From the NCBI RefSeq assembly GCF_037042905.1, contig NC_087245.1, positions 6,574,001 to 6,638,000 on the forward strand: a stretch of DNA of 64,000 nucleotides. The letters are read 5' to 3'. The number at the start of each line of letters is the position of its first letter. The stretch's first letter is position 1. A model generated the notes under the pieces. It worked only from the letters and a program-made list of their open reading frames with translations, was not told the DNA's origin and made no database searches. The position numbers and the translations under genes are program-made. This document shows, in pieces, positions 372 through 56,094 of this stretch. The DNA comes from Lytechinus pictus. Taxonomy: Eukaryota.

Positions 372-734
372 ACTCAAGCTGTCCCTCAGATGGTGTTCAA
401 ACTATTCCTGCCTCGATGCCTTACAACATCATGTCTAAAAACTACCCAATGGACTATGATAATAACCTGAACTGTTTGTGGCTTCTCCAAGCTGATGCTA
501 ACCATTCTTTAGTCATTGACATCCTTGACTTCACATTGGAAAGTGGATATGACTATCTCTACATTGGACTTGGTCACAATCAATCAAATGAGAACTCTGT
601 TGTCCTTGAGCTAACAGGATCTATAACTCCAACTAGATACTATCTTGGAATGAAGTTGTATCTTCAATTTTTATCTGATTCATTTGTTTCACGATCTGGG
701 TTCTCATTGAATGTGACATCCATTCCATTTGAAT
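372..734 (+). CDS. Exon, CUB-A domain (unit 1)
   Basis: tcag|AC...GAAT|gtaagt, 363 nt, phase 1-1; DSSCPSDG...SIPFE. Confidence 0.9.
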
Positions 735-3700
735 GTAAGTATGTTATGAGTGTGAAGTCTTGCACAAATTTGGAGACCAAATTTGCGACTTACGGGTATA
801 TCATGGTAACGCAATTTGACTTTCTAAAGGATAATGTTAAGCCGAAAAAAGCTAATTTTTATACTTTTTGTACAAAGTCTTTGGGAGATGAAATTCATAA
901 AAGGTGATTATTTTTATTTCTATTTGGACTGCTTCATTAAATTAGGGTTCGATTTAAATGTGGAATGGGCTGCAAAAATTTCCAATGAAAACAAAAGATA
1001 AAAAAACAAAGAAATGCTAAAAAAAAAAAGGAAAGAAATGTATCAGGGAAAATTCGGTTTTTGCATTTCTTCTTTATTGAAAATTTGACATGAAATTACA
1101 TAGAGGACATCTAGGAAAAAAATAGAATATGAAGTTAAATTGGCTGTCTAATATCATATGTTTTTCACATTGAATGAATTTACATATTTTTTTTCTAATA
1201 AAAAAAAGATTATACATGTACTTGTTCATAGTTAATGTGGTAAGGAATATGCGTGCCAAATTTTGGCGCGATTCTGTGAAGGGCTGGCGGCCGTGATCAG
1301 AAGGGAGTTCATTATGGCCCCACCTTGTTCCTCAAAATCATCTTAAACAGCCCAGTCCTTTAACCCAATAGGACTGGGTTATTTGAGATGTATTGAGGAC
1401 TGGGGGGCCATGATGGCCCCCTCCCTTTCTGATCTCGGCCGCCGTTCGCGCAATCGCGCCGAAATTTGGCACGCACATTCTTTACCACATAAACTACAAG
1501 CTAGTATAAAAGAAATTTCTGGAAAAAAAATGTTTTAATTTTTATGAATAAAATATGCAAATTTATTCATGAAAACAATATTTGCATATTTAACACCCTA
1601 CATGTATTTCACTTCAAATTTTCTTCTTTTTTTACAGATGTCATCTTTGTAATTTAATTAAAAGTTTTCCACAAAGAAAATTTGCGAAAGCCAATTTTTT
1701 CCTCATGTATTTCTTTGGTTTTAGAATTTTTATGTATTTCTTGTAATTTTTCTTTTGTTTTTCAATTTTTTTTCATTGGAAATTATTACAGACCATTTAA
1801 CAACTAAATTAAACCTTGAATTAATTAAGCAGACCAATAATATAATCTCCCATAGGCTTTGTACACAGAGTACAAAAATGAGCCATTTTGAGCATGACAT
1901 TGCCTTGTAAAAAGTCATGTGATGCGCGATGGTACATTGTATACCTGTATGTCACAAATTTGGTCTCAAAAGTTGCGCGAGACTTCAAAGAAAAAAGTCA
2001 TACAATATTGAGGCGCTATCTTCTTGCATTTCAAAAATATTGTGCGAAGCGTCGAGGGCCATCATGCTGCCACCCCCCCCCCCCCCCGTCCTTCAGAGTT
2101 CAGAGAAGATTAAAAAAAACTTGTAATGTGGAAAGAGAGTGGGAAAATGACGAAAGTAAGAGAGAAGGAAAACATTCAAATGGCCGGTAATAGAAATAAG
2201 CTGCTATAAGAAAGAATGAAAAGAGTGTGTATTACATATAGTCTTTCCTCAAAAAGTTCTTTCAAATAATTGAAATGGATTCCAGGAATTTTATCTTTGA
2301 AACGCATAAGCATGTACATGTACATGTAGTAGCTGCTGTAATTTATAATACTGCATTTAATCTAGAATGCATTTAGGGTTCTAATAAGGGAAGTGATGAA
2401 TGTTTTATGAGTATGATTCTTATTGAAATATGAAATTTTGATAACAGGATTTTTTTAGATATTTTATTACAAGTAATATTTTTGTATTTTTTTCCAGTAA
2501 CTGAATCATGTGATGCAGACCAGAGAGTTCTTGAAGGATCTTATTGTGATGGAGTCATGGATTGTTTTGATAAGTCAGATGAATTTGAATGCGGTAAGTC
2601 TTATTATTTTCATAATTTTTAGTTTAGTGTTACTATTTGAATTAGCATTTTGTATGTAAATAATACATGTAGGTTTATTTATATATTGGTGCAAGAGCTT
2701 TTTTTAGGGGGAATTTCTGTTTAAATTTTTTTCTCTGTCTCCAAAAGAGAATTTGTTTGTTAAAAGAAAGACTGAAAAATATATGTCCATTAGAAGAGTG
2801 ACACGGTTTAGTGCTGTTTTTGTCTCGCCTGCATAGCAGAGCGAGACTATAAGCGCCGCTTTTCCGACGGCGGCGGCGGCGGCGTCAACATCAAATCTTA
2901 ACCTAAGGTTAAGTTTTTGAAATGACATCATAACTTGGAAAGTATATGGACCTAGTTCATGAAACTTGGACATAAGGTTGATCAAGTATTACTGAACATC
3001 CTGCCTGAGTTTCAGGTCACATGACCAAGGTCAAAGGTCATTTAGGGTCAATGAACTTAGACCATGTTGGGAAAATTATTTTCAAAATCTTAACCGAAGG
3101 TTAAGTTTTTGAAATGACATCATAACTTAGAAAGTATATGGACCTAGTTCATGAAACTTGGGCATAAGGTTAATCAAGTATTAGTGAACATCCTGGTCGA
3201 GTTTCAGGTCATGTGACCAAGGTCAAAGGTCATTTAGGGTCAATGAACTTTGGTCAAGTTGGGGGTATTTGTTGAATTACTATCATAACTTTGAAAATTT
3301 ATGGATCTAGTCCATGAAAATTAGACATTAGGTTAATCAAGTACCACTGAATATCCTGTGTGAGTTTCAGGTCATATGACCATGGTCAATGGTCATTTAA
3401 GGTCAATGAACTTTGGCCGTGTTGGGGGTATATGTTAAATTACCATCCTAGCTCTGAAAGTTTATGGATCTAGTTCATAAAACTTGGACATAAGAGTAAT
3501 CAAGTATCACTGAACATCCTGTACGAGTTTCAGGTCACATGACCATGGTCAAAGGTCATTAAAGGTCAATGAACTTTGGCCGTGTTGGGGGTATTTGTTG
3601 AATTACCATCCTAGCTCTGAAAGTTTATGGATCTAGTTCATAAAACTTGGACATAAGAGTAATCAAGTATCACTGAACATCCTGTACGAGTTTCAGGTCA

Positions 3701-6700
3701 CATGACCATGGTCAAAGGTCATTAAAGGTCAATGAACTTTCACCGGCCATCGAACGTAGGGTTAATGATAAGCTCCTCTCTCTCCAGAGGAAGGATGTCT
3801 TGTCTAGACCCATTTACCGACAACTCCGGAGCTCGTCTGGTCTATGTCCCATAATCTTTGGGCAACCGAAGATTCATAAACCAGACACTCCACTCAGACC
3901 TATTGTGTCTACTAGAGGATCTCCCACGTACGCACTGGCTCAGCATTTGACTTACATCTTACAGCCTCTTGTTGGTCAGGGCGTGCATCACGTGAGAAAC
4001 TCTAAACATTTCGTTGAGCAGATCTGTCAGATGAACGTCTCTAACAATGACCTCCTCATCAGCTTTGATGTTGAGTCATTGTTCACAAGTGTACCAGTTA
4101 AGGATGCTTGCGCCATCATCCTTGAGAGATTGAAATTTGACAGAACTCTCCCTGACAGGACACAGTTGTCTCCTCTAGAGATCCATGACCTGCTTGAGAT
4201 GTGCCTCAATTCCACCTCTTTCAGATGGAGAGACACATTCTACAGGCAAACGGAAGGGGCTGCCATGGGGTCTCCCCTGTCCCCAGTGGTAGCCAACATG
4301 TTCATGGAACATTTCGAGGAGACGGCTCTCCAGTCAGCAACCCACAAACCCAAAGTGTGGCTTAGATATGTGGACGACACTTTTGTGGTTTGGCAACACG
4401 GTGCTGAGGAAACTAGCAATTTCTTACAGCACCTCAACTCTCAACACGAATGTATCAAGTTCACCATGGAAATGGAGAATGAGGGGTCTATCCCCTTTCT
4501 TGATACAAAGATTACGAGGACGGCACAGGGATCCCTATCCCATCAGGTTTATCGGAAACCTACTCACACTGATCGGTACTTGAACTATCGTTCATTCCAC
4601 CACCCATCAGTGCTGAGATCCATCAACAAGACGTTAGTCAAACGAGCGCATGAGGTTAGTGACCAGATCCACCTGAGAGGTGAGCTTGAGCATATCAAAC
4701 GTGTTTTGAAATGTAACAACTACCCCTCACATAAGATCTGCACTGAGCTTCCCCCCTCGCGGAACCCTCGTGCAGGACAACCCAAGGCGAGAGTCGTTCT
4801 TCCATATCTGGGAGCAGCCTCTCACAAAATTCAGAGGATTTTGAGAGAAGCCGACATTGAGGTTCGTCATAGTTCCTCAAATAAGCTTCAATCTGCCGTC
4901 ACTACACATAAGGACAAGCGCAACTCCAAGGACCTCCCTGGAGTTTACCGAATTCCTTGTGAATGCGGTAAAGTTTACATCGGAGAGACGGGTCGTTCCT
5001 TCAACACTCGGATTAAGGAACACAAGGCCCATGGTAGGAGAGACGAGAGGGAAAAATCTGCAATCATCGATCATGCCCATACGCATGATCACCGGATTCT
5101 TTGGGATGAGAGCAGACTAGTCACCCGTGTCCCCTACTGGTATCAACGGAGAGTCAGAGAAGCGTTGGAGATTGAGGAACATAACACTGTTCCTCAAGAC
5201 AGCGGCCTCCAACTCAGCAATATCTGGCTTACCGTTCTAGACAAAGAGGCTAATTTGCCTAATTAGCCTACCCGGACGTTCCACACACGTGTGAGCACTG
5301 CAGTGTATGGGCGGAAGTGGTGACTTTTGTCATTCATGCTAATCCTAGCGGGAATGATAACTGACAGCAATTTCCGGTCGTCGCTGGTTTTGCGCGCCCA
5401 ATTTGTGTGTTGTCACCCACGTCCGCATATGTGGATGTCATGTGACCTATCTAGCCAATCAGAGACATGTACTCTGCGAGATACCGTGCATACGGCACTT
5501 CGACAGAGTATATAAGGCCTGCTTTTACTAACTTTGCTCATTCTCCTGAGGACGACAAGAACACACTTGTCGAAACGTCGAGATTGGGTGGTCCTTTTTA
5601 GGACCAACATATGCCCAAGAAAGAATACATGGTGTACCGTGAAACCTACTACACTAGTCCTTTCTAGCAGTCTCTTTGCTGGACTTTATCTCTTTTATTT
5701 CATGAACCCTTACAATCCCTGGTGTTTTGAGTCTTGTCTGTCTGGGGGAGGAGAATTATTCCTCTCCCCCCTTTAAGATATTGGTCGCTGATCTTGCGAC
5801 CACAAAAATGATATAAACTTTGCAATTGATCGAAATTTCACTCAATGTATATATTTTCTATGAATTAATTATGCTTATTTATGTACAAAATAATACTGGC
5901 CATTATTCACTAAATAAAGTTGCTAGAATACTTTTTTTTTTATTGTGGATATTATTTCTGGCAAAATTTTGGTACTAAAATTGGTTGTTTTTCATTGTTT
6001 TTAATTTCTTCTATCTATCTTTGTGTTTTTAACTTTTGATTTTTACAATTTTTTCAATGATTTTTTGTGAGGGCTTGCATGCCTCCAGGCAACAGTGTTG
6101 AATTTTAATTTGCGAGCCCTGGCCCATAGAAAATCCTTTTAGTGAGGATGCAAAATGACCTCACAATTTTGCACGATAAATTTGTAATATGAAAAGTTCA
6201 TATGAATTTTATGATATTTTTTGTTGTCTTACTCAACATTTGAGAACAATTTTTTTCCAAAGTTATGCAATATTTTGCAAGAACATATTACACCTGAAAT
6301 TGCTCAAAATGATGCTCAAGTGGTTATGTATTTTCACACCCAACTTTGTGGTTGCTTTTATTTGCTATTTATTGATTTTCCAGCTTATTAAGGATTGGTT
6401 GGGCAGCCAATTTTTATTTCATTTAGGTAAAAACAATTCTGATTGTATGTCCTTGTTGCCTCATTCATGTTTATCTTTAATAATAGTACAAAAAAGTTGC
6501 TATGCTTGTTTTCCTTCTTCTCCTGGAAACAGTACAGGCCACTGGCTGGTGTATTGTCGTACTGCTTGTCAATTACTAGAAGATAGATACAAAATTGATG
6601 TTGATTTCAGTTGGAAGTTCAATTTATTAATGTCAATGCTGAACTGAATGACAGCAAAGTGATTCATCAACTAACATTTTGTTTCTTTTCTTTTATTTTG

Positions 6701-7308
6701 ATTATTAGGTACAAGCTGTCCCTCTAACAATAGTATTCAGACTATTCCTTCCTCGATGCCTTACTCCATCATTTCTGACAACTACCCTTTTAATTACAAC
6801 AATAATCTTGAGTGTTTATGGCTTCTCCAAGCTGCTGCTAACCATTCTTTAGTCATTGATGTCTTGGTCTTCACATTGGAAAGTGGATATGACTATCTCT
6901 ACATTGGACTTGGTCACAACCAATCAACTAATAACTCTGTTGTCCTTGAGCTTACTGGATCTATAGCCCCAACGAGATACTATCTTGGAATGAGGTCATA
7001 TCTTCAATTTGTATCTGATTCTTCTATTTCACGGTCCGGTTTCTTATTAAAAGTGGCATCCATTACATTAGAATGTAAGTAGGCAGGGTTGTGTTAAAAA
7101 TTCAAAGTTACTAAACATGTAAGAACAAAATAGATCTTGAATAATTGTTATGAAAATAGTGGAAGTTGTAGCATTAGTATGAGAAGAACTGCTGTTATTT
7201 TCATTGTCATAATATTGGTAATGATAAAGCAGTAGTACATATAGGAGTAGTAATGATAGTTAAAGTAGTGGCAGCAGCAGTAATACTAGTAGTTGTTAGT
7301 AGTAAATA

Positions 7309-7341
<33 letters not shown>

Positions 7342-10300
7342 TGGTAGTGGTAGTGGTAGTGGTTGTGGTTGTGGTTGTAGTAGTAGTAGTAGTAGTAGTA
7401 GTAGTTGTAGTTGTAGTTGTAGTTGTAGTTGTAGTAGTAGTTGTAGTTGTAGTTGTAGTTGTAGTTGTAGTTGTAGTTGTAGTTGTAGTTGTAGTTGTAG
7501 TTGTAGTTGTAGTAGTAGTAGTAGTAGAAGAAGAATTAGTAGTGGTGGCAGAATTAGTTGTAGATGTAGTAGTAGTTGTGGTACTGGTAGTAATGATGCT
7601 ACCACTTGTCGCTGTTGTTGTATTCAGCGTAAGAAGTAGCAGAAATAGAAGTTATGATAGCAGTATTCCTTTTTATTTCTTAAAAGATTGTGATACCAAT
7701 ATACATGTATGGTATGAATTCTATATGAACTTGACATTCATTCCCTAATATATTATAATTTGAAAGAGGAACAGTATTTTTTCCAAATGATATCTATCCC
7801 TCAAAGTAGTCATTGTAAAATTGATTTTCCTCCAGTATCTGAATCTTGTGACGCAGACCAGAGAGTTCCAGTAGGATCTAAGTGTGATGGAGTCATGGAT
7901 TGTTTTGATAATTCAGATGAACTTGGATGTGGTAGGTTAATCAATTTCTTCTTGTACAACCATGCATTTCTGTACGGATTGATGCCCCATTTGTATGGGT
8001 AGTTTCAGAGTTTTGTTTTGAATACATTTGCTTTCAAAAGCACCTAGTGGGAGATCACCTACATTGTTTACACGTAAACATGTAAAATCAATATTTTTTT
8101 TCTTCCAGCAGAAGGGAGAGAAAAGGATCAGTAAAATCTTCCTCACAAGCTATATGATGGTCAGGTTAATTTTTAGGAGTTATTAGTCATGGCACCAATT
8201 TGAAGTGGTGCCTTTTTTTCTTTGAGAAGTCAAGATTTACTCTTTTCTTTATTCAATGTACATGAAGTATGGTCTATTTTGGTCAGATTATTAATACCAT
8301 TAGAATTGTGTTATTAACTGCCCTAGTGAATACAAAAAGGAATCATGCCACTGTTATGCTGAAGCCCAAGCTTACAGTTTTCTCTTCAGTCTGGATTTAT
8401 TTGTCCCAAAATTGTACTTTTTAAATCTGTTTTCAATTTCGGTTTAACATGATGGGGATGCATGTCATAATGTAATACATGTATCCTCAACATGATAAAC
8501 AACATTTCTATGTGTTTTGCTGTTTCTTATGATGTAGAATTGGTGTGAATTGAGATCTTTAATTTGATGTTGAATGTATTTTTATGTAAATTTTTTGTAA
8601 AGGGTTATTGGAATTCAGCTTTTCAGCCTTCTAGCCTTCCTTCCATCCCCCCATTGGTTTCCTCGCAATAACTCGAAAAATATTAAATGGATTTAAAAAA
8701 ATTTTGGTGTGTACATGAAGGTAGATGACACCAAAATACAGGCTAAGTTTGATTTCGGTGCCCACAGGTTGCAGCTTATTATGCATGTTGGTTTCTGCAT
8801 AGTAACTAAGGAAATAATCAACAGATTTCAAAGAACTCTGGTGTGTGTATATAGACAGATGACAGCAAAATACAGGCCAATTTCGATTGCGAAGTCTGCA
8901 GGTCAAAGGTCACAGCTCATATATGCAAGTTGGTTTCTGAATAGTAACTTAGGGAATTATAAACAAATTAACAAAATCATTGGTGTATATGCACGATATT
9001 ATTAAGTTCAATAGTATTGAATGAATTTCTGATTGCGTTAAGCGGGAGCATCTGTGTCCTTCTGTGTCCTTAGGACACGTTAAATTTCTAGTTTATTGAG
9101 TGTTTTATCCTTAAATCAGTGAGTTTTTTCATTCACATAAATGCTTCATTTTTCTAATGCAAACTGTCATTTAATTTGTATTTGATAAAATGTATTTAAT
9201 CTTTATACAACAGAGACCAGTGAAATTAATGACTCAATCAAATTTTGTTTTGAATTGGATTTATACCGTCAAACGCTTGAAAATCTCTGTTTGAAAAAGT
9301 ATAGATGTTTAACAGTTTAATTTGTTTCAATCCTAATCTAGCTAATATTTCACTCTCGGCTGGAGAAATATACAATCTGACATCACCTGGATATCCTTCC
9401 AACTATGACAACAATCTTAACCTGGTATGGACCATATTAGCACCTTCAGATTATCGCATCATCATCTATGCAACAGACATCAGCACGGAACTTAACTATG
9501 ATTTTCTTTATATTGGCGAGGGATTGACCTTTGACCTCAACAATCTCTTAATGGAGTTTACAGGGTCTTATGATAGGAGTTTACAAGTTCTTCTGCCTGG
9601 GAATAAAGCTTTTATCAGCTTCACTAGTGACTATAGTACTACAAGACAGGGATTCTTCCTTGAAATATCAACTTCTGATCAACCAGGTAGGTTAGAGGAA
9701 ATGTACATGTATGTTAGAGCATGAGAAAAAAATATGTCAAGAATTTTAAAGACAACACATAATTTTGCAGTTATATGTACATGTATCAGGTGTCATTTTT
9801 TTCTTCTGAATAGACCAAACTTGTGGGACTAACTATCAAGCATTCTGTAATTCTTTACTATTGAAAGTTTGCAAACTTTTGAACACAATCATGAAGTTTA
9901 TTTTAGCTGAGCAAATTAGACTACTACATGTACATGTATTAGGGTACGATCATGAAAGCGCGTGTTGGTTGGAAATAAGGTATAGTTTACTTTTGTTCTC
10001 AACCCATAAAGAAAAAATCTGAAGAATTACCTCAAATTTTTTGGCTGCTAACTGCAGCCTTCCTCCGCGATGACCGATGTGACCTGATTTGACCTAGTGA
10101 CATAATGAATGATAATCGGGTCATAGATTATTCACCGAGGGCCAGATTTCTTGGACATCGACACCTTAGCTCCTCTTCCTTTGGAGTATCGCAGCACAAT
10201 CACATCGAATCGCCTGGACATCACATTGACATTAACAAGGTACAAGTGCTGGACAGGTAGCCGCGGTACTTTGAGAGAGGAGTGAAAGAAGCGATCTACA

Positions 10301-19300: not shown

Positions 19301-20163
19301 AAAGATTATACATGTACTTGTTCATAGTTAATGTGGTAAGGAATATGCGTGCCAAATTTTGGCGCGATTGCGTGAAGGGCTGGCGGCCGTGATCAGAAGG
19401 GAGTTCATTATGGCCCCACCTTGTTCCTCAAAATCATCTTAAACAGCCCAGTCCTTTAACCCAATGGGACTGGGTTATTTGAGATGTATTGAGGACTGGG
19501 GGGCCATGATGGCCCCCTCCCTTTCTGATCTCGGCCGCCGTTCGTGCAATCGCGCCAAAATTTGGCACGCACATTCTTTACCACATAAACTACAAGCTAG
19601 TATAAAAGAAATTTCTGAAAAAAAAATGTTTTAAATTTTTATGAATAAAATATGCAAATTTATTCATGAAAAACAATATTTGCATATTTAACACCCTATT
19701 TCACTTCAAATTTTCTTCTTTTTTTACAGATGTCATCTTTGTAATTTAATTAAAAGTTTTCCACAAAGAAAATTTGCGAAAGCCAATTTTTTCCTCATGT
19801 ATTTCTTTGGTTTTAGAATTTTTATGTATTTCTTGTAATTTTTCTTTTGTTTTTCAATTTTTTTTCATTGGAAATTATTACAGACCATTTAACAACTAAA
19901 TTAAACCTTGAATTAATTAAGCAGACCAATAATATAATCTCCCATAGGCTTTGTACACAGAGTACGAAAATGAGCCATTTTGAGCATGACATTGCCTTGT
20001 AAAAAGTCATGTGATGCGCGATGGTACATTGTATACCTGTATGTCGCAAATTTGGTCTCAAAAGTTGCGCAAGACTTCAAAGAAAAAAGTCATACAATTT
20101 TGAGGCGCTATCTTCTTGCGTTTCAAAAATATCGTGTGAAGCGTCGAGGGCCATCATGCCGCC

Positions 20164-20202
<39 letters not shown>

Positions 20203-26778: not shown

Positions 26779-26809
<31 letters not shown>

Positions 26810-41800: not shown

Positions 41801-42454
41801 TCGAATGAAACGCCTGGTATATTTGTTTTATATCCTACTTTTGATAATTTACAACCAAAATCTATGTGTTGAGCTTGCAAAGTCCGGTTACTTGAGTTGA
41901 ATTACCTACTTTTCTCCGAGCCACCGCGCTCAGCGGAACACAGATTAGTGCCTGCGCCGACGCATCGCTGGACTTGCCCGGGAGAGAGAGCGCGCTGGCC
42001 GGTGCGCCCGAGAGTTTAGCTAGATATCCAGTTTTGCGAAATAATGACGTCAGACCTCGATATATCCAAAAATATATCGAGGTCTGACGTCACGCAACGT
42101 CATAGTTGAAATATATTAGGTCACATGATCTACTTGAACCAATCACTATACAGGATTTACTCTATGTAGTCCTTGCCTTACATCACTATGACATCCCATA
42201 TGCGGCCAATTTGAATTGTCTCCATGGGTATAGTGATTACCACTATTTACAACTATTAAAGATTCATAACTTTCTTGTTGTTTATCCAATATTGTTCAAA
42301 CTTTCACCTATCAACTTGTCAAATTTTTCTTTTCCTTATGAAAACAAGTTTTTATTTGGGTTGGATTCCCCTTTAAGTAAGGGATATAATAGTAATGGTA
42401 GTATTAGTAGTTGTTAGTAGTAGTAGCAGTAGCAGTAGTAGTAGTAGTAGTAGT

Positions 42455-42513
<59 letters not shown>

Positions 42514-42516
42514 GAT

Positions 42517-42549
<33 letters not shown>

Positions 42550-48500: not shown

Positions 48501-51500
48501 TTTAATCCAGGGCTGGTATTCTTTTTTTTTAAGTATTCTTTTTTTAAGTATTTTACTTAGTGCTTAAAAACTTGACTAAGTAAAATGCTTAAACTCGTAT
48601 TCCGATTACATTCAAGTATTTCACTTAATCATGCCAAATATAAGTAAAATACTTACTAATAACAATTGTGACGTCATATATTTGAGCCAAATAGCGAGCA
48701 ATGTATGTATCCATCTTTGCGCAGAATGTATGAGTGGGAATAACACTTTGTAAACTGCAAACAAGCTATACTTAGTCTTGTAGGTGGCTGACTTAGATTT
48801 AAGCAAAATGCTTTGCCAAAAAAATGCATTTGCATACCAAAGATGGATAAGCATTTTATTTACCACAATAACTGTGAGACACCTGCTCTGTATGCTAGTT
48901 CTGCTCTGGAACGTGCCAGCTGATAGTAGTACCCAGAATTCTACGCGTGCACTACCAAACTCAACGCACGCCAACCTAATTCTTCCTCTTTTGCTCTCGA
49001 GCCTTCGCCGAGTTAACATCACAAAGCTAAGTACACTCTCCAATTTGCGAATTTTGGTATTTATTTTATGCTTACACATGTAGTTTTGTTTGCCAATCTT
49101 ACTATCTTGTTTAGTTTAGATTGTGTTCTACCACCAAGCACATTACAAAGGAGTCTGTTATTTTAACTGTATTCGTTCGAGTTTGTGTTTCATTGACATA
49201 TCAGTGTGTATTGCATTGGCACTTGGTGCCTGTGCAGAAGGGTCGCCATTGGGAACCCTCCCCCCCCCCAGCTCTCACGCTTGTGTTTCGTGCGTTTTAG
49301 TGCTTGTTAATTTATTCTAGTCTCTTCCTTTATCCTTTGCTTTTAGGTAGGAGTTGGATGGTATCGCCATTTGTTTATTGTTTTAATTGAAACTCTCGTT
49401 TTACTTCTCTTTTTGAGTTAGCTTTTTGTTTCTTTTCTCTAGGTTGATTATTCAATTGTTTAATTGTAACCCTTTGTTTTGTCAATTGATTATTTAGCAT
49501 AATTAATTTTTGAATTACTGTGCTTAATTAATTGATGCTTCCGGTCCTAGGAATTTTTTTCTTACAGACTTTTCCTGACGTCTTGAAAAAAAAATTATTC
49601 TTACAGGTGGACTTCTTATTCTTGTCTTTGGACTTTGCTCTTTTAGGAAGCCTCCTTTTGCTTAATTAGTTACGGCTTAATTAATTAAAAAGAAATATTT
49701 TCAGGCGAGCTTCTGTTGACTTCTCCGTAGCCGTATCTTTGCTTAATTAAGTATCAACCTTTTATTCATCTTAATTAATTTAAAACAAAGAAAAATTTGT
49801 TTTTTCTTTTAGGTGGCTTCTTAATCCTTTGTCTTTGAGTTTTAGCTTTTAAGAAGACTTCTCCTTTTTGATTTATTTAATTAATTAAAAAAAAATCTTG
49901 TCTTTTCTCTGTTGGTTTTCTTAATCTTTTCCTTGGACTTAGATTTAAGAAGCCTTGTTTGTGTTTAATTTATTCACGACTTCAGTTTGTTTTAATGAAA
50001 AAAAAATAATCATTTAGTAAAACAAGACAAATATTTTCATTTGTTTTGTTTTCAGGCACCCTTTGGAAATCTTTGATCCCTACAGGTTCGCCTTTGTGGC
50101 TTTATCTTGTTGTAACGGACTTGGGAATTCTGTTTTGATTCCTGGCTTGTCCCCCCCCCCCCCACCCCCTCTGTTTTTCTCTTTTTTTTTCTTTCAGAGC
50201 TATAGAACTTCCAAGAGAATGAGCTTGTCTGACTCATCAATTGATGAACCAGCTGCCACTGACAAGGTAACAAATCTCTGGTGTCTTGTTAAATCAGGGG
50301 CGGTGAATATGAGAGTAACAGAGAGAGTTCCTTTGCGCAGGGCTCTTGTAAGGTTGGTACTGTGGAGCCACGTTGATGTGCCCCAGAGAAGAAGGGTGGA
50401 AGCACATCCACGTGCCATTTGCGGGGAGTGTAGCACTAGCTGAGAAAACTACATCTCCTCCAGGGCTGCCTAACCCACCGGCTATCAGGTCACACCAAGA
50501 CAGGGATGAGAGCTCAGGTCTCTCTTCCCAGCACAGACTAGGCTCGATGCTCTTTCAGGGAGCATTAGCAAAGGGCTACCAGCCCCTAGTCGAAAGAGAC
50601 GGCAAAGCCAGACCCCGTCTGGCTCACGCACTAATCTGACCCCGTCAGATTTGGGGGACGTTTCTTCCTTGCCAACGGCCGCTCCTAGGGGGAAGGCTAA
50701 ATGTAAGGATTCATGCCCCCCAAGTCTTTTGCACCTTCTTCTGCTCTCTCTGTGGAGCCCGCTCAAAAGAAGAGGAAAGCCAAGGCTGCAAGTCCCGCTA
50801 ACCTGCGCACACCTTTTCTGATTCTGGTGCCAGCGGCCAAGTGTCAAAACTACTTATGTTGCTCCAGTGCGCCTTTGAGCAGTGCGGGTTCGCCTCACGC
50901 TCCTCGTCATCTTTAGCCGCCGTGTCCCCAAGCACCGTGCAGATCAAGCAGGCACCCGCCAACCCGCACCCTGGGGAGCCTCTAGCGATTCACTTGAATC
51001 GTTGTCTCATTCACCTGCATCTGGATACCCCTGTAAATTCACAGACACCTCAGACTTATCCCCAGTCTGTTGTCAGGCCCCCGAGTCTACCAGCGAACCG
51101 CTCTCAGGGCCGTATGGCTCCCGTGGCTCTCGATGCTCTGCCGGGAGAGGAGTCTTTAACTCGGGACGAACCTCTTATATACTCCATGGAGGAGGTTCTG
51201 TCTGAGGATGAACCTCCCTCAGACTCATCGGGCAGTCTGGCTCCCCAGCCTACTGCCAGTACCGCACAGGATGCACAGGAGAGAGCTCCTCCAGCGGTAT
51301 CTCCCTCATATCTACCTGAGTGGCCCGGTAGTTGATGAGGAAAACTCCCTCTTTTTCACCAAGACGACTACACATCAGGGCATTCCATTAACGAGGGCCT
51401 TCAAGTCTGCCTATGAGAGGGCAGCCAGTCAAACCTTCCGCTCAGTCGAGAAGGCCGGCGGTCTTCGGTAGGGGCTTCACCTTTTGTAATGACACTGAAG

Positions 51501-54500
51501 CCTTTTTCGACCCCAAGTCCTTAGGCACCTGCTTCACCGGCGCTTGGTTTGCTGCTGAAGAAAAATTTGATTGCCGATACGAGCTATATACATGTTCTGC
51601 GCTCAGACTCACGGCCTTCCTCGATGCTTTGATGGGTTTACGAGCACAAGCATCTGAGTTAAATATCATGGCGAGCGACATGGATGAAGCTTTGCTAGTG
51701 CTATTCGATGCGTTTTGGATGCAGCTGGCTACAGCCGATACCACGGCATGGAACGCCTGGAGGAAGCGGGTTCACACCAAACTTGGTATCCCTCCTAAGG
51801 ACATTCAGGGCTTAACCCTGGCATCCCCCAGGTGGATAAACGCCTCTTCGGGCAAGACGTGGCCAAACTTCTTAGAGAGAATAAATTGAAAGTCGTAAGC
51901 AGAAGACTTAGTTCATTAAGGATCTCAAATCCTCCCGCCCATCGGCAGCTTCCACTAGGAAGCCTGCTCCGAGGGCGCAACCCCAGAGCCGCCCTACGAT
52001 TGCTCAGAGACAGCCCTGGGCTCCCGCCCCATTGCTTTGACGTTGTGTTAGGGTTAACTCCCGTGGCAGCAGGGGTAGAAGCAGGCGGCCCACTGCCAGG
52101 CCTCCAGCCAAAGCCAAGCAGTCTGTTTGGCAGGGTGTCTCTATCACTTCCTCCCCGTGTGGGAGTGAGTGACAGATGACGCATTCATCTTGTCTGTCGT
52201 GCGAGAGGGCTTCTTTGTAGATAAAAGAAGCCTTCCTACACGGCGCAATTTAAGTCGCCTCGCCGACTATTCCCATCCTCCACCAGCAGTACATCGCAAC
52301 AGAGATCAACGCACAGCTGGAGAAAGATGCGATCGGGAGGGTAACAGACAATCCACATCTTTGTTTATCCCGATCTTTGTCATTCCCAAGCGTTCAGGCA
52401 AAGGGAGAATGATCCTGAATATGAAAAATTTTCCTGCATCAGGAGCACTTTCGAATGGATACTTCAGCCTCTATTCTCCCGCCGTTGGAGGCGTCAGATC
52501 TCGCCGTCTATTTTCACATCTCCATCCATCCCGCTTCATGTTGGGATTTCAGTTCCGCGGGCCTGCACCTCTTCGTCTACCTAGACGACTGGCTTCTCGT
52601 CGCCTACTTGGAGGTGAAGCTTTGCTCCCACCATTGCCTTACTCCTTTAGGGGACTCAGGAACTGGGGTTTATCATCAAACGGGATAAGTTAGAACTTCC
52701 TCTCACGTGCCCACTTACTTAGGTGCCGAGAAAGATAAGGTCGACCCAACCCCTACAGGGTACGGGCACTCACTTGCTCGCTCTCTCCGGGAATGCTAAC
52801 AGGTAAAAGCCCGGGTCTGGCTTCGACTCTTTGGTTACAAGGCCAGTCTAGTCGACATCTTATCAGACTGTTGCCTACACATGAGGCCATTTCAGAGGCA
52901 CCTTCTTCACCATTACAGTTCTGGCGTAGACTTGCTGCTGTTGAGGATCCCCCTTCTGGCAGGCATCCGACACAGTCTAGCCCCGTGGAGCCGCCCATCA
53001 TTCATGGCCCAAGGCAAGCCTCTTTGCACTCCCCTTCTTTCTGCCTCAGTAACCACAGACGTCTAGCTCTCGGGCTGGGGCGGTTACTGTGCGGGGGAGA
53101 TGACGTCGGGGGCCTGGCCTCAGCCGCACATCCTTCCACACATAATGTTCTCGAGATGCGGGCTGTACACAACTCCCTCCATCACTTCCAGCACATGCTG
53201 GTTGGCCGGACTGTTGATCCGCACGGACAATAGGTCTGTTGTGGCCTACATAAATCTGCAGGGCGGCATTCGGTCGAGTTCTCTCAGTGTGCTTGCCGCG
53301 GTTCTTTGGAGGTGGTGCTGCTCGATGTAGATCGTCCCAATTGCCTCGTACATTCCAGGCAGGGACAACCTTTTAGCAGACTCTCTCTTTTGGGCGTTGT
53401 CTACCCTCCGAGTGGTCTCTCCACCCAGAGATCTTTCGGTTGATCCAAGCCCGCTGGGGGCCGTTGGAGTTGTACTTTTTTGCCACAGCTCTCAATAAAA
53501 AGCTGCCAGTGTTCTGTTCGCGGGTGAAGGAAACAGAAGCCGCCTTTCTAGACACCTTCTCCTTTCATTGGGGGCATTCGAGATGCCACACGCTTCCTCC
53601 CTTCGCATGAATACCTCCGGCGCTGAGCTAAGTAAGGGAGGACAAGGCCTGTGAGCTTCTGGTATCTCCAAATCCTTGATCTTTTGGAGGGGGAACCTCT
53701 CTCCCTTCCCGAGAGGTCAGATCTTGTCTCGCAACCTCTCTCGGGAATCAAGCATCCGCGGCCGGTGGGGAGGATGCATGTGCCTTATTGAATCACAAAT
53801 GAATTATTGTTGTGAGATATGGGGAAATCGTTTTCAGATTCATGTGGATCGAATTACCAAACTCCAAAAAAGAGCAGCCCGTTTGATCCTTAGATGTCAC
53901 ATATATACCCCATCTAAAGAAATGTTTTCAAATCTAGATTGGACAACCTTCAAGTACAGAATCATTTATTTTCGATATATATTTGTTTATAAATGTGTTC
54001 ATGGACTCGCACCAGAATACTACTCAAATTATTTTCAGGATCTAAACAAAACTTATTCGAAAAATATGAGGCAGTCCGTCAGACACGATCTTGTTATTCC
54101 AAGGTGTCGTTCTGATTATTGCAAGCATTCCTTATTTTACGCCTGTCCAAAACTGGAATAGCTTGCTGGTCATCATACGGGAATCGTCATCTTTAAATTC
54201 ATTTAAATATAATCTTTAAAAACATCTCGGGTCGATTGACAATTAAGGTTTACGCTGGCACTTACTACTTTGTAAAATTTATGTATTTGAATGTTTGAAT
54301 ACCATTGAAATAATCTCTCTAATTTTGCAATGTTTATTATTGATGTCTTCGCAATACAGCTTGTATTACATTTTTTGCATATGTTAAGCTATTTTGAATG
54401 TTTTTATCTGTAAATATTTTCTGTTATTATATTCTTGTGTATAGGGGCCCCATGGGAGATCAACTGATGTTGAATAGGCTACCCCTTATTGAATAAACAA

Positions 54501-56094
54501 TAAACAATAACCAATAAAAAACAAAACAATAATGGCCTTAGGGCTCTACGAGCGAGCGGCTCAATTTGTGGCCGAAAGCCGTAGAGGCTCCACTCCAGGC
54601 TTATACAACTCCCAAATTGGTTGTTTTTCGGATTGGTGTTGAGCCACACAGTGCTCCAGTAGCTTCCATCGCGGATCTTCTTGTCAGACTCTTCGACAAC
54701 TGTGACTACGGCATCTTTGCATAATTTATCCATCAAGACCGCCTTTCCAATTGCGATTGCCTCTGGTCAGAGGCTTAGTTCTTTGCATGCGTTATGCGTT
54801 TCTCACGGACACATTTGGTGAGAGAGGCTTCAAGTCAGCTTGATTCCCAAGCCAAGAACCAAACGATTTCGTCTGGTTCTGTGGAGGTGTTTCTCGCTCC
54901 TATTTCGGACTTTTCCTCCATTCCGGAGGATAAAGTGTGATGCCCTGTCCGGGCTTTGAAATGGTATCTTGACAAAACAAAGGCTGTTCGTAAATCTGAT
55001 CAACTCTTTGTCATTTCTTGTGTGCCTTTCACTGCAGCGTTTCGCGTCTCTCTCGCGCTGGATCGTCGAGGCGATTAGAGCGGTGGGCGCAGGCGAGCTC
55101 CTTTCGGATATGAGGCCGAAGGCCCATGATACCTTGGGCCCGTCTTATAAAGAGTTGCGATTGATGGAAAGCCAGCAAAGTCAACATATAAAATGCATGT
55201 TTGCTCAAAAATTTTCTAGATATGAATGTATATCCATAAATTCATTGATTTCTTGCCAATTTGGTGTTTTTTTCTCCTTTGTTTACAAAAAACATTTTGC
55301 AAATTTCCTGTAGAAAAAATTATGACACTGTTGGATTTCCATAGATAACTGGCGACACCTGCTCGGGTTCCTCCCGTCAACCCATTGCCTTGCGTGGCAA
55401 CATGTCTTTACATCCCGGCTCGATTATAGGAAGAATTTGGTTGGCGTGCGTTGAGCTTGGGTAGTGTGCGCGTAGGGAGATAGGCACTCTTGCTCAAGAA
55501 TTCTGTGTTCTACTATCAGCTGGCACGTTCCAGAGCGGAACTAGCATACTGAGCAGGTGTCTCCAGTTATCTAGTAAACAAAAAATCACAGTAAAAAGTA
55601 TTTTCATGACTTATTAAACAAAATACTATGTAAAATGATTAAAATTCTGACTGAAGTATCGATTTGAATACCTGCCTTGGTGCATAAATGTTTTATAATT
55701 TCCTATGTTTAATTTTCCTCCATAAAATCAGATCCACGCTGTCCCTCAGATGGTGTTCAAACTATTCCTGCCTCGTTGCCTTACTACATCCTTTCTGACA
55801 ACTACCCAATGGACTATGATAATAACCTGAACTGTTTGTGGCTTCTCCAAGCTGATGCTAACCATTCTTTAGTCATTGACATCCTTGACTTCACATTGGA
55901 AAGTGGCTATGACTATCTCTACATTGGACTGGGTCACAATCGAGCAAATGAGAACTCTGCTGTCCTTGAGCTAACTGGAGTTCTAGCCCCAACAAGGTAC
56001 TATTTTGGAATGCAGACATATCTGCACTTTGTCACAGATTCTACACAGACGCGATCTGGGTTTTCATTGAATATCACATCTATTCCGTTTGAAT
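372..56094 (+). CDS. Internal part of a giant multi-exon gene encoding a CUB/LDLa/SEA tandem-repeat extracellular protein (33 exons, 2342 codons in window; both termini outside)
   Basis: All exons below have AG/GT boundaries and compatible phases (phase 1, except 0 and 2 inside SEA), and I saw no in-frame stops. Domain motifs: CUB (YP..Y..N..C.W, LE.GYDYL, F.SD....R.GF), LDLa (CDG..DC.D.SDE..C), SEA (F..DL.DPS..LY, GFRNGSI). Confidence 0.9.
750..2095. mobile_element. Two related MITE-like elements head-to-head forming an imperfect ~1.3 kb palindrome (repeated at ~18850-20210 and ~35570-36890)
   Basis: 754-789 is inverted relative to 1951-1986, and ~1200-1355 relative to ~1372-1560; the right element starts ttaaccc at ~1359, a piggyBac-like terminus (inference). 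Confidence 0.55.
2498..2593 (+). CDS. Exon, 4-Cys LDLa module (unit 1)
   Basis: ccag|TA...TGCG|gtaagt, 96 nt; TESCDADQRVLEGSYCDGVMDCFDKSDEFEC. Confidence 0.88.
2822..3740 (+). mobile_element. Helentron-associated (HINE/DINE-1-like) non-autonomous element, 3'-truncated by the Penelope insertion
   Basis: 5' hairpin gtctcgcctgcatagcagagcgagac, (GGC)n, ~180-bp internal tandem repeats with aaggtcaaaggtca, inserted in a T run; absent from the equivalent site near 20920; full-length relative at 26729-27707. Confidence 0.7.
3800..5266 (+). CDS. Penelope-type reverse transcriptase plus GIY-YIG endonuclease (N-terminally truncated; frame is open back to the 3741 junction)
   Basis: PKIHK..PLRPIVS, SFDVESLFTSVP, GAAMGSPLSP, RYVDD, PFLD, YRKPT; GVYRIPCECGKVYIGETGR...RIKEH. 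Confidence 0.93.
   Translation: MSRPIYRQLRSSSGLCPIIFGQPKIHKPDTPLRPIVSTRGSPTYALAQHLTYILQPLVGQGVHHVRNSKHFVEQICQMNVSNNDLLISFDVESLFTSVPVKDACAIILERLKFDRTLPDRTQLSPLEIHDLLEMCLNSTSFRWRDTFYRQTEGAAMGSPLSPVVANMFMEHFEETALQSATHKPKVWLRYVDDTFVVWQHGAEETSNFLQHLNSQHECIKFTMEMENEGSIPFLDTKITRTAQGSLSHQVYRKPTHTDRYLNYRSFHHPSVLRSINKTLVKRAHEVSDQIHLRGELEHIKRVLKCNNYPSHKICTELPPSRNPRAGQPKARVVLPYLGAASHKIQRILREADIEVRHSSSNKLQSAVTTHKDKRNSKDLPGVYRIPCECGKVYIGETGRSFNTRIKEHKAHGRRDEREKSAIIDHAHTHDHRILWDESRLVTRVPYWYQRRVREALEIEEHNTVPQDSGLQLSNIWLTVLDKEANLPN
5537..5588 (+). ncRNA. Minimal type I hammerhead ribozyme
   Basis: tctc-CTGAGGA-c-gacaag/aacaca/cttgtc-GAAAC-GTC-gaga: both core boxes, 6-bp stem II, minimal stem III, stem I tctc/gaga. 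Confidence 0.85.
6709..7074 (+). CDS. Exon, CUB-B domain (unit 1)
   Basis: ttag|GT...GAAT|gtaagt, 366 nt, phase 1-1. Confidence 0.88.
7285..7580. repeat. Compound (GTA)n/(GTAGTT)n/(GTG)n microsatellite
   Basis: Directly visible; homologous tracts at ~22560-22670 and ~42400-42760. Confidence 0.95.
7836..7931 (+). CDS. Exon, 4-Cys LDLa (unit 1)
   Basis: ccag|TA...TGTG|gtaggt, 96 nt; SESCDADQRVPVGSKCDGVMDCFDNSDELGC. Confidence 0.88.
8612..9095 (+). mobile_element. Decayed HINE-like element with ~125-bp internal repeats (2 here, 4 in the copy at ~44620-45355)
   Basis: (cctt)n-like head, repeated gtagatgaca.caaaatacaggc.aa, 3' hairpin tgtccttaggaca. Confidence 0.5.
9342..9686 (+). CDS. Exon, cysteine-free CUB-C domain (unit 1)
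   Basis: ctag|CT...CCAG|gtaggt, 345 nt; TSPGYPSNYDNNLNLVW...YDFLYI...FTSDYSTTRQGF. Confidence 0.88.
10022..10462 (+). mobile_element. Decayed Penelope-like 3' fragment with inverted pLTR at its 5' side (second copy ~25902-26315)
   Basis: Degenerate GIY-YIG C-terminus (ERGVKEAIYIQTFKPSL..DGG); 10022-10052 is the imperfect reverse complement of ~10431-10462. Confidence 0.65.
10686..10802 (+). CDS. Exon, canonical 6-Cys LDLa (unit 1)
   Basis: tcag|CC...TGTG|gtatgt, 117 nt; GDCGNSLMSCNSSDVCISASAFCDSLSDCLNEDDEINC. Confidence 0.88.
11214..11576 (+). CDS. Exon, CUB-D domain (unit 1)
   Basis: tcag|AT...GAAT|gtaagt, 363 nt. Confidence 0.9.
12115..12210 (+). CDS. Exon, 4-Cys LDLa (unit 1)
   Basis: atag|TA...TGTG|gtaagt, 96 nt; TESCDVDQRVPIGSDCDGVIDCFDNSDELGC. 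Confidence 0.88.
13203..13306 (+). CDS. Exon, SEA domain part 1 (unit 1)
   Basis: tcag|TT...GGT|gtaagt, 104 nt, phase 1-0; VSIDGSFMIAGIFSSDLNDPSTVLYQNTTSSIIDG. Confidence 0.82.
13345..13950. repeat. Intronic ~210-bp tandem repeat, 3 copies (2 copies in unit 2 at ~30295-30690)
   Basis: Recurring gaaat.acaga...tcacttgctct and caatggtcatttagggg. Confidence 0.75.
14685..14746 (+). CDS. Exon, SEA domain part 2 (unit 1)
   Basis: acag|ATG...TTCAG|gtatgt, 62 nt, phase 0-2; MDAVFESLGPLYFGATVTGF. Confidence 0.82.
14929..15104 (+). CDS. Exon, SEA domain part 3 with GS motif (unit 1)
   Basis: caag|G AAT GGA AGC...CAAG|gtattc, 176 nt, phase 2-1; RNGSITTHFQVQL...; the donor is weak but restores phase 1. 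Confidence 0.78.
15466..15828 (+). CDS. Exon, CUB-E domain (unit 1)
   Basis: tcag|AC...GAAT|gtaagt, 363 nt. Confidence 0.9.
17150..17510 (-). mobile_element. Highly decayed, locally duplicated LINE (RTE-like) fragment (also ~33895-34250)
   Basis: Minus-strand FSLKMKGLVYRSCINLMIQYGSKMW resembles the post-RT KG.VY...V...M.YG.E.W motif of RTE-type LINEs. Confidence 0.45.
17532..17627 (+). CDS. Exon, 4-Cys LDLa (unit 1, last exon)
   Basis: ccag|TA...TGTG|gtaagt, 96 nt. Confidence 0.88.
18469..18831 (+). CDS. Exon, CUB-A (unit 2)
   Basis: tcag|AC...GAAT|gtaagt, 363 nt; flanking introns match those of 372-734. Confidence 0.9.
20600..20695 (+). CDS. Exon, 4-Cys LDLa (unit 2)
   Basis: ccag|TA...TGCG|gtaagt, 96 nt. 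Confidence 0.88.
21984..22349 (+). CDS. Exon, CUB-B (unit 2)
   Basis: ttag|GT...GAAT|gtaagt, 366 nt. Confidence 0.88.
22864..24174 (+). mobile_element. HINE/DINE-like element, second family (shorter copy at ~42947-43390)
   Basis: (GTCC)n microsatellite near the 5' end, internal tandem repeats with aggtcaaaggtca, subterminal gcgggcgta (inverse tacgcccg seen in the 42950 copy), 3' hairpin then ttgtt. Confidence 0.65.
22959..23531. mobile_element. MITE with long TIRs and TTAA target duplication (Kolobok/piggyBac-type), nested in the HINE
   Basis: TTAA|aggggaatgaaacctttggaa...ttccaaaggtttcattctcct|TTAA; empty site gacttaacctagg at ~43048. Confidence 0.85.
24546..24641 (+). CDS. Exon, 4-Cys LDLa (unit 2)
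   Basis: ccag|TA...TGTG|gtaggt, 96 nt; TESCDADQRVLEGSKCDGVIDCFDNSDEFGC. Confidence 0.88.
25172..25516 (+). CDS. Exon, cysteine-free CUB-C (unit 2)
   Basis: ctag|CT...CCAG|gtaggt, 345 nt. Confidence 0.88.
26485..26601 (+). CDS. Exon, 6-Cys LDLa (unit 2)
   Basis: tcag|CC...TGTG|gtatgt, 117 nt. Confidence 0.88.
26729..27707 (+). mobile_element. Full-length HINE/DINE-1-like element
   Basis: Subterminal inverted repeat gtctcacctgcat / atgcaggtgagac, (GGC)n, internal tandem repeats; inserted in a T run; empty site taatttttaccatt at 10921. Confidence 0.8.
27987..28349 (+). CDS. Exon, CUB-D (unit 2)
   Basis: tcag|AT...GAAT|gtaagt, 363 nt. Confidence 0.9.
28896..28991 (+). CDS. Exon, 4-Cys LDLa (unit 2)
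   Basis: atag|TA...TGTG|gtaagt, 96 nt. Confidence 0.88.
30153..30256 (+). CDS. Exon, SEA part 1 (unit 2)
   Basis: Matches 13203-13306, 104 nt. Confidence 0.82.
31441..31502 (+). CDS. Exon, SEA part 2 (unit 2)
   Basis: Matches 14685-14746, 62 nt. Confidence 0.82.
31684..31859 (+). CDS. Exon, SEA part 3 (unit 2)
   Basis: Matches 14929-15104, 176 nt. Confidence 0.78.
32221..32583 (+). CDS. Exon, CUB-E (unit 2)
   Basis: tcag|AC...GAAT|gtaagt, 363 nt. Confidence 0.9.
34275..34370 (+). CDS. Exon, 4-Cys LDLa (unit 2, last exon)
   Basis: ccag|TA...TGTG|gtaagt, 96 nt. Confidence 0.88.
35192..35548 (+). CDS. Exon, CUB-A (unit 3), two codons shorter owing to a shifted acceptor
   Basis: tttctcag|GC TGT CCC...GAAT|gtaagt, 357 nt, phase 1-1. 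Confidence 0.8.
36891..38250 (+). mobile_element. Tandem-repeat-containing (HINE-like) element unique to unit 3, abutting a splice acceptor
   Basis: Repeated ttccatctggtaga.c.tcatgaggt at ~37080, 37251, 37422, 37531, 37687; 3' hairpin cacatcattgatgtg followed by a T run. Confidence 0.6.
38259..38354 (+). CDS. Exon, 4-Cys LDLa (unit 3)
   Basis: ccag|TA...TGTG|gtaagt, 96 nt; TEPCDADQRVIEGSYCDGVMDCFDKSDEFEC. Confidence 0.87.
39630..39995 (+). CDS. Exon, CUB-B (unit 3)
   Basis: ttag|GC...GAAT|gtaagt, 366 nt. Confidence 0.88.
41034..42372. mobile_element. TTAA-duplicating MITE (same aggggaat terminus as 22959-23531)
   Basis: TTAA|aggggaatcca...tggattcccct|TTAA. Confidence 0.8.
41344..42166. mobile_element. 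~820-bp near-perfect foldback element with TA target duplication
   Basis: TA|catagagtaaatcctgtatagtgattggttcaa...ttgaaccaatcactatacaggatttactctatg|TA; arms pair almost to the centre at ~41750. Confidence 0.85.
42400..42760. repeat. Compound (GTA)n/(GCA)n/(GTAGTAGTAA)n/(GTG)n microsatellite
   Basis: Directly visible. Confidence 0.95.
43838..43933 (+). CDS. Exon, 4-Cys LDLa (unit 3)
   Basis: ccag|TA...TGTG|gtaggt, 96 nt; matches 7836-7931. Confidence 0.88.
45606..45950 (+). CDS. Exon, cysteine-free CUB-C (unit 3)
   Basis: ctag|CT...CCAG|gtaggt, 345 nt. Confidence 0.88.
47212..47745 (-). mobile_element. 3' UTR and tail of a CR1/L2-type LINE, antisense
   Basis: Minus strand reads a pyrimidine-rich tract, TATG/TG microsatellite, AATAAA and a (TTCAA)n tail. 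Confidence 0.55.
48239..48355 (+). CDS. Exon, 6-Cys LDLa (diverged paralogue)
   Basis: tcag|CC...TGTG|gtatgt, 117 nt; GNCGNSLITCSSSDVCISASAFCDEMSACINGDDEINC. Confidence 0.87.
48855..55584 (+). mobile_element. Decayed DIRS1-like tyrosine-recombinase retrotransposon
   Basis: Inverted terminal repeats (~48868-48987 vs ~55427-55570); frameshifted RT (PIFVIPKRSGKGRMILN, VYLDDWL), RNase H (HNVLEMRAV, RTDNRSVVAYINLQGG), MT-like segment (EWSLHP...FFAT..NKKLPVFCS), YR remnants (IASGQR.SSLHAL, PVRALKWYL, SRWI...AHDT). Confidence 0.85.
53780..54533 (+). mobile_element. 3' fragment of an L2/CR1-group LINE inserted into the DIRS element
   Basis: NYCCEIWG...LQKRAARLIL post-RT motif, AT-rich 3' UTR, (AATAAAC)n tail at ~54492. 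Confidence 0.8.
55732..56094 (+). CDS. Exon, CUB domain (diverged; last exon detected)
   Basis: tcag|AT CCA CGC TGT...GAAT|gtaagt, 363 nt, phase 1-1. Confidence 0.88.

Follow-up and report, generated by a model that had tools for sequence, protein, structure and literature searches.

What protein is encoded where one block of CUB, LDLa and SEA exons is repeated in tandem along a sea urchin contig? The window analyzed here, a stretch of 64,000 nucleotides from contig NC_087245.1 of Lytechinus pictus, was tentatively read by the first-pass annotation as part of an unfamiliar receptor unlike enteropeptidase or matriptase, with gamete recognition, immunity and mucus among its possible roles. When the gene model was carried into both flanks, the entire window (1..64000, + strand) fell in the interior of one gene. 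The flanks added a transmembrane helix, further SEA domains, Frizzled domains and two protease domains, and the receptor reading gave way to that of a serine protease of the type II transmembrane class (TTSP). Judged from the sequence, the array is very likely the mid-stalk of one sea urchin TTSP with two catalytic domains. Coordinates below are counted from the start of the window; coordinates that are negative or exceed 64,000 belong to the flanks, and the contig position is 6,574,000 plus the coordinate. All exons of the gene are on the + strand.

Self-BLAST of the window returned large repeats offset by approximately 15-18 kb and 33-36 kb. The 13 exons spanning 372-17627 summed to 2,643 nt and read through, and the exon order started anew at 18469 and 35192, in agreement with the unit length and the three starts given in the first-pass annotation. 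All 33 exons in the window (33/33) had AG/GT ends, compatible phases and no stop, as it had also reported. Introns were duplicated alongside the exons; in the register of that annotation, their mismatch was 2.5-3.1% among the three full copies and 5.7-6.8% between those and the last copy. The copies carried private intron insertions (e.g., an RT-bearing element at 3677-5263), and RT or endonuclease domains were recognized by Pfam in 4/8 tested intronic ORFs, confirming the heavy transposable element traffic. As a control for chance openness, 11 of 160 AG..GT stretches of 363 nt outside the exons were open; the control is weak because ORFs of intronic elements are also open. The repeat of the exon order from three starts stood, and the first two of these open full copies. 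However, the copy from 35192 was incomplete within the window (7 exons, no SEA, first exon 6 nt shorter), the array extended 25 kb upstream of the window, and its natural register began at the SEA. Read in that register, the gene contained four complete 13-exon units of 881, 881, 881 and 879 aa, with nucleotide identities of 95.4-99.8%.

Unit 2 begins upstream of the window, with its first five exons at -5142..-474. Within the window it continues with a CUB exon at 372..734 (Pfam CUB, E 2.6e-15), a short 4-Cys LDL exon at 2498..2593 (by Cys count, with Pfam below cut-off), a CUB at 6709..7074, a short 4-Cys LDL at 7836..7931, a divergent CUB exon termed CUBb at 9342..9686 (Pfam CUB, E 1.2e-12), a 6-Cys LDLa at 10686..10802 (Pfam, E 3.6e-6) and a CUB at 11214..11576, and it closes with a short 4-Cys LDL at 12115..12210; exons without a Pfam value were placed by the exon chain, the two later short LDL exons also by Cys count. 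Unit 3 opens with a SEA in three exons (13203-13306, 14685-14746 and 14929-15104), recognized by a SEA profile and carrying GFxxGS[IV] at the second junction; the same joints were found in RNA for the identical upstream copy. The remainder of unit 3 (15466..28991, exon chain) comprises CUB 15466-15828, LDL 17532-17627, CUB 18469-18831, LDL 20600-20695, CUB 21984-22349, LDL 24546-24641, CUBb 25172-25516, LDLa 26485-26601, CUB 27987-28349 and LDL 28896-28991. Unit 4 opens with a three-exon SEA at 30153-30256, 31441-31502 and 31684-31859 (exon chain and SEA profile). Its remainder within the window (32221..56094, exon chain) comprises CUB 32221-32583, LDL 34275-34370, CUB 35192-35548, LDL 38259-38354, CUB 39630-39995, LDL 43838-43933, CUBb 45606-45950, LDLa 48239-48355 and the terminal CUB 55732-56094 (the most divergent tail); the final LDL exon of the unit lies just past the window.

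The proposed domain content, (CUB-LDLa)x4-SEA-CUB-LDLa, was supported for CUB and the 6-Cys LDLa by Pfam and for SEA by profile. However, four of the five LDL modules per unit were of the short, 4-Cys form. One of these scored 20.5 bits in Pfam, under the 24.1 cut-off, and those inspected (5/17) had 4 Cys in place of the six of class A, with the acidic C-terminal motif retained; the long LDLa modules inspected (5/8) had all six Cys. A single-sequence AlphaFold run on one CUB exon gave no usable model (pLDDT 42).

Several elements lie in the introns. The element at 3677-5263 (+), in the intron of unit 2 only, has a 529-aa open frame with Pfam RVT_1 and, by eye, a GIY-YIG-like tail, and looks by eye like a Penelope-like retroelement; a similar broken element occurs in the upstream flank. 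Endonuclease and RT frames of a LINE-type element, broken by stops or frameshifts, lie at 58676-61359 (+). Two GC-rich insertions (up to 52%) with several long frames, at 50000-54200 and 56900-58500, are probably degenerate retroelements; 4/4 of the frames tested had no Pfam match.

All 17 genome matches of the CUB exon fell at 6.548-6.630 Mb on the same contig, and the flanks of the window were therefore examined, over 120 kb upstream and 100 kb downstream. The hand-built gene model has 111 exons over 193 kb and encodes 7,481 aa (22,446 nt, approximately 806 kDa), with AG/GT at every junction and a single stop at the end. Three of its exons were added from an orthologue, and a broken HYR remnant at -51548..-51414 was excluded. 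The domain order is tail-TM-SEA-HYR10-SEA-HYR2-SEA-HYR15-LDLa-SP1 in the N half and FZ-CUB-LDLa2-CUB-LDL-[SEA-(CUB-LDL)3-CUBb-LDLa-CUB-LDL]x4-LDLa-FZ-SP2 in the C half, with totals of 7 SEA, 27 HYR, 22 CUB, 2 Frizzled (FZ) and 2 protease domains (SP1 and SP2).

Upstream of the window, as far as 117 kb away, are the anchor, the half with HYR and SEA, protease 1 and unit 1. The model places the ATG exon at -117341..-117330, the cytoplasmic tail and transmembrane exon at -111754..-111271, linkers, SEA1 and a Ser/Thr exon at -100461..-94743, the 27 HYR exons (Pfam HYR in the one tested) with SEA2 and SEA3 interspersed at -85177..-41418, an LDLa with the four exons of protease 1 (Pfam Trypsin) at -39227..-30010, Frizzled 1 (Pfam Fz), a CUB, two LDLa, a CUB and a short LDL at -29501..-22927, and unit 1 at -22135..-6301. 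The last LDL of unit 4 (66713..66808), an LDLa (67399..67506), Frizzled 2 (69702..70064, Pfam Fz) and the four exons of protease 2 with the stop (72129..76005, Pfam Trypsin) lie 3-12 kb downstream. Pfam recognized the flanking exons tested as HYR (1/1), Trypsin (6/6) and Fz (2/2), and matched the unique CUB in the flank under the cut-off. One helix was found near the N-terminus (hydropathy 3.11, next best 2.0) after approximately 135 hydrophilic residues, and was also present in the L. variegatus and Diadema orthologues. The model contains 174 N-glycosylation sequons, and its largest unassigned gap after the first SEA is 52 aa or less. A GRL101-type 7TM or C-terminal TM ending was sought downstream and was excluded, because the model terminates in protease 2 and a stop. 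The next gene downstream (+) resembles by eye an organic anion transporter (OATP/SLCO family).

Both protease domains have an R-IVGG activation site (Arg2830 in protease 1 and Arg7247 in protease 2), a preceding Cys with its partner Cys, and the His/Asp/Ser triad. Protease 2 has Asp189, the trypsin-type pocket, and its residues predict trypsin-like activity; its triad, activation site and Asp189 were kept in 5/5 aligned sequences. The pocket of protease 1 was atypical in 4/4 sequences (Ser189, Asn216, and Asp or Asn226, in chymotrypsin numbering), and protease 1 also has GDSGSS in place of GDSGGP. Such a pocket would be non-tryptic, and the domain may be weak or regulatory. The best solved-structure match for the S. 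purpuratus C-terminal orthologue (647 aa) was enteropeptidase.

TTSPs are described as having one N-terminal helix and a C-terminal trypsin domain that is activated by a cut before the domain (PMC10376093, available text). An N-terminal helix, a C-terminal trypsin domain with triad, and an activation site with Cys were all found in the present gene, together with the TTSP stem modules SEA, CUB, LDLa and Frizzled. In the available parts of PMC10376093 and PMC9663175, enteropeptidase (TMPRSS15), matriptase and corin share this plan of N-terminal helix, SEA, CUB/LDLa stem and trypsin end, as the protein here does, and corin also has two Frizzled domains in the stem. Unlike these, the present protein has 7,481 aa against 1,019 in human enteropeptidase, seven SEA, 27 HYR, near-identical multi-domain repeats and a second, mid-chain protease. 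Pfam scans of the orthologues from L. variegatus and Diadema found neither of the enteropeptidase domains MAM and SRCR, and the corin set (two Frizzled, eight LDLa, one SRCR) was matched in the two Frizzled but not in SRCR, with 22 CUB present. Human polyserase-1 likewise has multiple protease domains in a chain with LDLa and a type II anchor (PMC1435904, available text), and here too two protease domains lie in one open frame, as in single proteins of three other species. However, its three domains are in tandem, whereas the two here are separated by approximately 4,150 residues of FZ, CUB, LDL and SEA, and the likeness comes without shown orthology. In lamprey enteropeptidase XP_078738558.1, too, repetition of a multi-domain block has lengthened the protease stem, but that block is MAM-LDLa-CUB, with no SEA or HYR match and a single protease.

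Could the units, or the two protease regions, instead belong to separate genes? Four of 24 listed public runs (three raw RNA, one contig) were searched over a 10-kb stretch that begins at the last SP1 exon and runs into the array. Nine of the ten predicted splice joints in this region were among the 15 joints listed, all GT..AG. Protease 1 ended at a consensus donor and was spliced to Frizzled 1 in 4/4 runs, with 26, 18 and 9 reads in the three raw runs; in the contig run, one contig spanned six exons, this joint included, with 0 differences. In two runs, first mates over the exons were nearly all on the - strand, as expected for a + strand transcript. Within the array, the SEA to CUB joint had 47-55 reads and the short LDL to CUB-start joint 21-30 reads in two runs, each with 0 in the third raw run, which carries a second species label; the joint from the second LDLa to the first array CUB was absent among the best 15 of 58 joints. 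The array exons are spliced in RNA, which supports the giant mosaic protein of the first-pass annotation. A short intronic repeat at positions 4100-4260 of the tested 10 kb drew thousands of strand-biased RNA reads from elsewhere and is probably a highly transcribed SINE or small-RNA-derived repeat.

Two or more neighboring genes (HYR-protease 1 and CUB-LDL-protease 2), or separate unit genes, would account for the database fragments of 355, 647 and 3,853 aa and for the public run that was far deeper on the array than on the protease 1 block. However, besides the protease 1 to Frizzled 1 splice, there is no stop within the array, and four database proteins, which come from three species, combine both proteases in a single chain; we regard separate genes as all but excluded. 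The short reads link protease 1 to the next block and array exons to each other, and none bridges both proteases. Since the reads cover 10 kb around protease 1 and the array start, we only infer a single full-length mRNA over the whole model.

The SEA domains are split over exons, and single exons gave no Pfam SEA match (0/5 distinct exons). However, the spliced-SEA profile matched Pfam-verified SEA at E 2e-10 (163 proteins searched), and the L. variegatus orthologue has four Pfam SEA stretches. The self-cleavage-type motif GFxxGS[IV] was present in 7/7 SEA domains, and SEA homology thus coincides with a Gly-Ser-hydrophobic motif of the self-cleaving type. The described motif is GSVVV or GSIVA, and the halves remain bound until force parts them (PMC6954182, available text); the array motif reads GSITT, which differs from GSVVV. 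On these motifs, SEA cleavage and shedding in this protein are somewhat favored. The SEA copies were 100% identical here, 98% within L. variegatus and 93-94% across the two species. Their three exons were nucleotide-identical in all four units, whereas the CUB exons of those units differed by up to 4% or more, reflecting either local conversion or strong constraint.

Near-identity of the units also raises the question of whether all four are real. Assembly of haplotypes in tandem, with at least one unit false and a true gene of three units, is an unlikely alternative. One unit may be such a haplotype duplicate because units 1 and 2 are no further apart than alleles: they differ at 5 of the 2,643 coding bases and at 0.96% of the genomic sequence, similar to the difference between the assembly and an older L. 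pictus model (9/1,360 and 3/630 residues). In the three raw RNA runs, the SEA exons reached 2.0-3.7 times the depth of single-copy exons, against an expected 4. However, short exons lose depth, and the contig run gave 16-17 times single-copy depth; contig depth is a poor measure, and this value could reflect shorter transcripts, an array that is much longer, or 3' bias. Four SEA blocks cannot come from two haplotypes, the units carry private intron insertions and 1-4% differences, and in L. variegatus, which has two units, the internal CUBs pair with the internal ones here and the terminal CUBs with the terminal ones.

Orthologues were sought by HMMER among 1.84 billion representatives, with a follow-up using a longer query, in proteins of at most 5,000 aa. 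A word-index protein search gave 1 of 155 candidates with one CUB exon and 0 of 3,942 with the three-SEA alignment. The near-identical named database proteins were from L. pictus. L. variegatus XP_041480192.1 (isoform X25, 4,800 aa; LOC121427594) has the same order with two SEA units and 85-91% identity over most long aligned stretches. Diadema setosum XP_072175569.1 and two D. antillarum proteins (approximately 3,000 aa) have the same order with one SEA between the proteases, in a single SEA-CUB-LDLa-CUB-LDL block that is likely the ancestral form. The S. purpuratus model LOC105446087 (4,966 aa), without TM and SP1, has a CUB-LDLa-CUB-LDL block in four copies, which are 95-100% identical and are separated by one or two HYR. 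Protease 2 was 93% identical to that of L. variegatus and 69-70% to those of Diadema and S. purpuratus; for protease 1, absent from the S. purpuratus model, the values were 93% and 59%. The proposal of a giant mosaic enlarged by tandem 13-exon duplication was upheld. The unit counts are four here, two in L. variegatus and one in Diadema, with a different block in S. purpuratus.

In the CUB tree (48 rows, with the long-branched Diadema rows not used for conclusions), the terminal CUBs of both Lytechinus species paired, as did the internal ones (98/88 and 97/88), suggesting that at least two units are probably older than the split of the two species. Two other CUB positions (98/95 and 94/74) and the SEA domains grouped by species, which points to homogenization of the units within species. 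Omega was 0.41-0.57 in 5/6 unit pairs (units 1 and 2 differed by 5 nonsynonymous and 0 synonymous changes) and 0.28-0.70 between older CUB paralogues; the units are under purifying selection.

Is the number of units itself selected? Neutral copy number, in which unequal crossing-over between symmetrical phase-1 exons adds and removes units at a repeat-rich locus, with every in-frame product tolerated, is compatible with the protease identity of the gene, and we judge neutral expansion to be roughly an even bet, if anything slightly below. One unit suffices in Diadema and two in L. variegatus isoform X25, S. purpuratus repeats a different block, the HYR count varies between the older L. pictus model (19) and the present assembly (15), and lamprey enteropeptidase repeats its own MAM-LDLa-CUB block. 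On the other side, omega stays under 1 both for the units and for older CUB paralogues, frame and splice sites are intact in 33/33 window exons despite retroelement insertions, and the blocks that lengthened this one position differ between two lineages. These three observations do not amount to selection on copy number itself, and any function of unit number has less than an even chance. The run of 15 HYR exons is a recent tandem expansion in its own right, and near-identical HYR also form long runs in S. purpuratus.

EBR1 is built of CUB/TSP1 repeats and hyalin of HYR repeats; CGSP1, a cortical granule protease, was considered as well. EBR1 and hyalin resemble the present protein in their tandem CUB or HYR repeats, but the latter has a predicted type II anchor and protease domains, and TSP1 was absent in Pfam scans of two orthologues, unlike the EBR1-type CUB/TSP1 arrangement. 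A protein mainly for adhesion or matrix, in the hyaline layer or at the egg surface, with the proteases secondary, would fit the 27 HYR and 22 CUB domains, and the S. purpuratus orthologue bears the UniRef label 'Hyalin'. Sp-Ebr1_5, a TM-SEA-HYR7 gene, has HYR repeats under positive selection (PMC5521101, available text). That it is this gene is weakly disfavored because base composition differs: the available data give GC 0.503 and GC3 0.528 for Ebr1_5, against 0.44 and 0.34 in the first 1,243 codons here. Conservation of the protease 2 triad, activation site and Asp189 also argues against a mainly adhesive role, which we regard as improbable. The findings also suggest that fragments of one gene have received separate database names, such as 'ANP-converting enzyme', 'CUB and sushi', 'Hyalin' and 'serine-rich adhesin'.

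Taken as a whole, a two-headed TTSP with a CUB-LDL stalk and SEA joints is a likely explanation. The exon chain, domains, helix, activation sites and triads, splicing inside the array and from protease 1 into the Frizzled-CUB-LDLa block, and orthologue frame were demonstrated here; the steps that follow draw on what is known of TTSP and SEA chemistry. The protein would be made as one zymogen with heavy N-glycosylation. Each SEA would cut itself at Gly/Ser on folding, with the pieces staying bound, and cuts at Arg2830 and Arg7247 would activate the two domains, each held by its conserved pro-region disulfide. The C-terminal 4,650 residues would then hang on the protease 1 disulfide and four cleaved SEA joints, and the joints would serve as shedding points that free protease 2. 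In enteropeptidase, the CUB binds substrate and CUB-LDLR-SRCR clamp the catalytic domain (PMC9663175, available text); by analogy with this CUB binding, the CUB-LDL repeats may be docking sites for substrate or matrix, as well as a spacer. Given R-IVGG with its Cys, the enteropeptidase analogy and the 7/7 SEA motifs, the surface zymogen may mature into non-covalent and disulfide-linked segments, with a trypsin-like head on a long sheddable stalk of at most approximately 310 nm by assumed domain sizes. The array may have been built in two rounds of unequal crossing-over between phase-1 exons, of CUB-LDL pairs and then of the 13-exon block, with its uniformity upheld by conversion or recent turnover. 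The most likely job of the protein would be pericellular proteolysis, either on the apical surface of an epithelium or on a matrix surface.

A further reading, which we think rather doubtful as a whole, is that the stalk is a tunable tether. Unit number would set the reach of the trypsin-like head from the membrane and from the second head, by up to approximately 40 nm per unit on assumed domain sizes, and a pull by force or ligand at any of the seven self-cleaved SEA joints would shed fragments that bear a protease. Copy number might range from approximately 3 to 16 between animals (one run having 16-17 times depth), and two urchin lineages would have lengthened the stalk independently with different blocks, possibly at an egg or hyaline-layer surface.

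Searches of the open-access literature yielded no paper on this gene. The suggestion of an undescribed protein stood to that extent; however, the gene is already in databases, where its orthologues in L. variegatus, S. purpuratus and two Diadema species are NCBI models named 'uncharacterized'. As a system it is not of a new kind: gene models from echinoderms (sea urchins and a sea cucumber) and from a hemichordate also included other mosaics, with 2-5 protease domains each, among them an L. pictus protein with four. On the same contig, NC_087245.1:11,034,000-11,164,000 (minus strand) has 14 matches to the Frizzled exon alternating with 14 to the trypsin C-terminal exon. This second and larger tandem array of Frizzled and protease is either a many-domain polyserase or a gene cluster. 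The gene is an extreme, uncharacterized variant of the known TTSP family and not a new receptor. It is approximately 7 times the length of human enteropeptidase, and HYR arrays, seven SEA and two spaced catalytic domains are not described for human TTSPs in the available text of the sources cited. Genes with one, two and four units, along with the different Strongylocentrotus unit, form a natural series for studying repeat growth and homogenization, and the same series allows asking whether SEA self-cleavage acts as a serial mechanical fuse.
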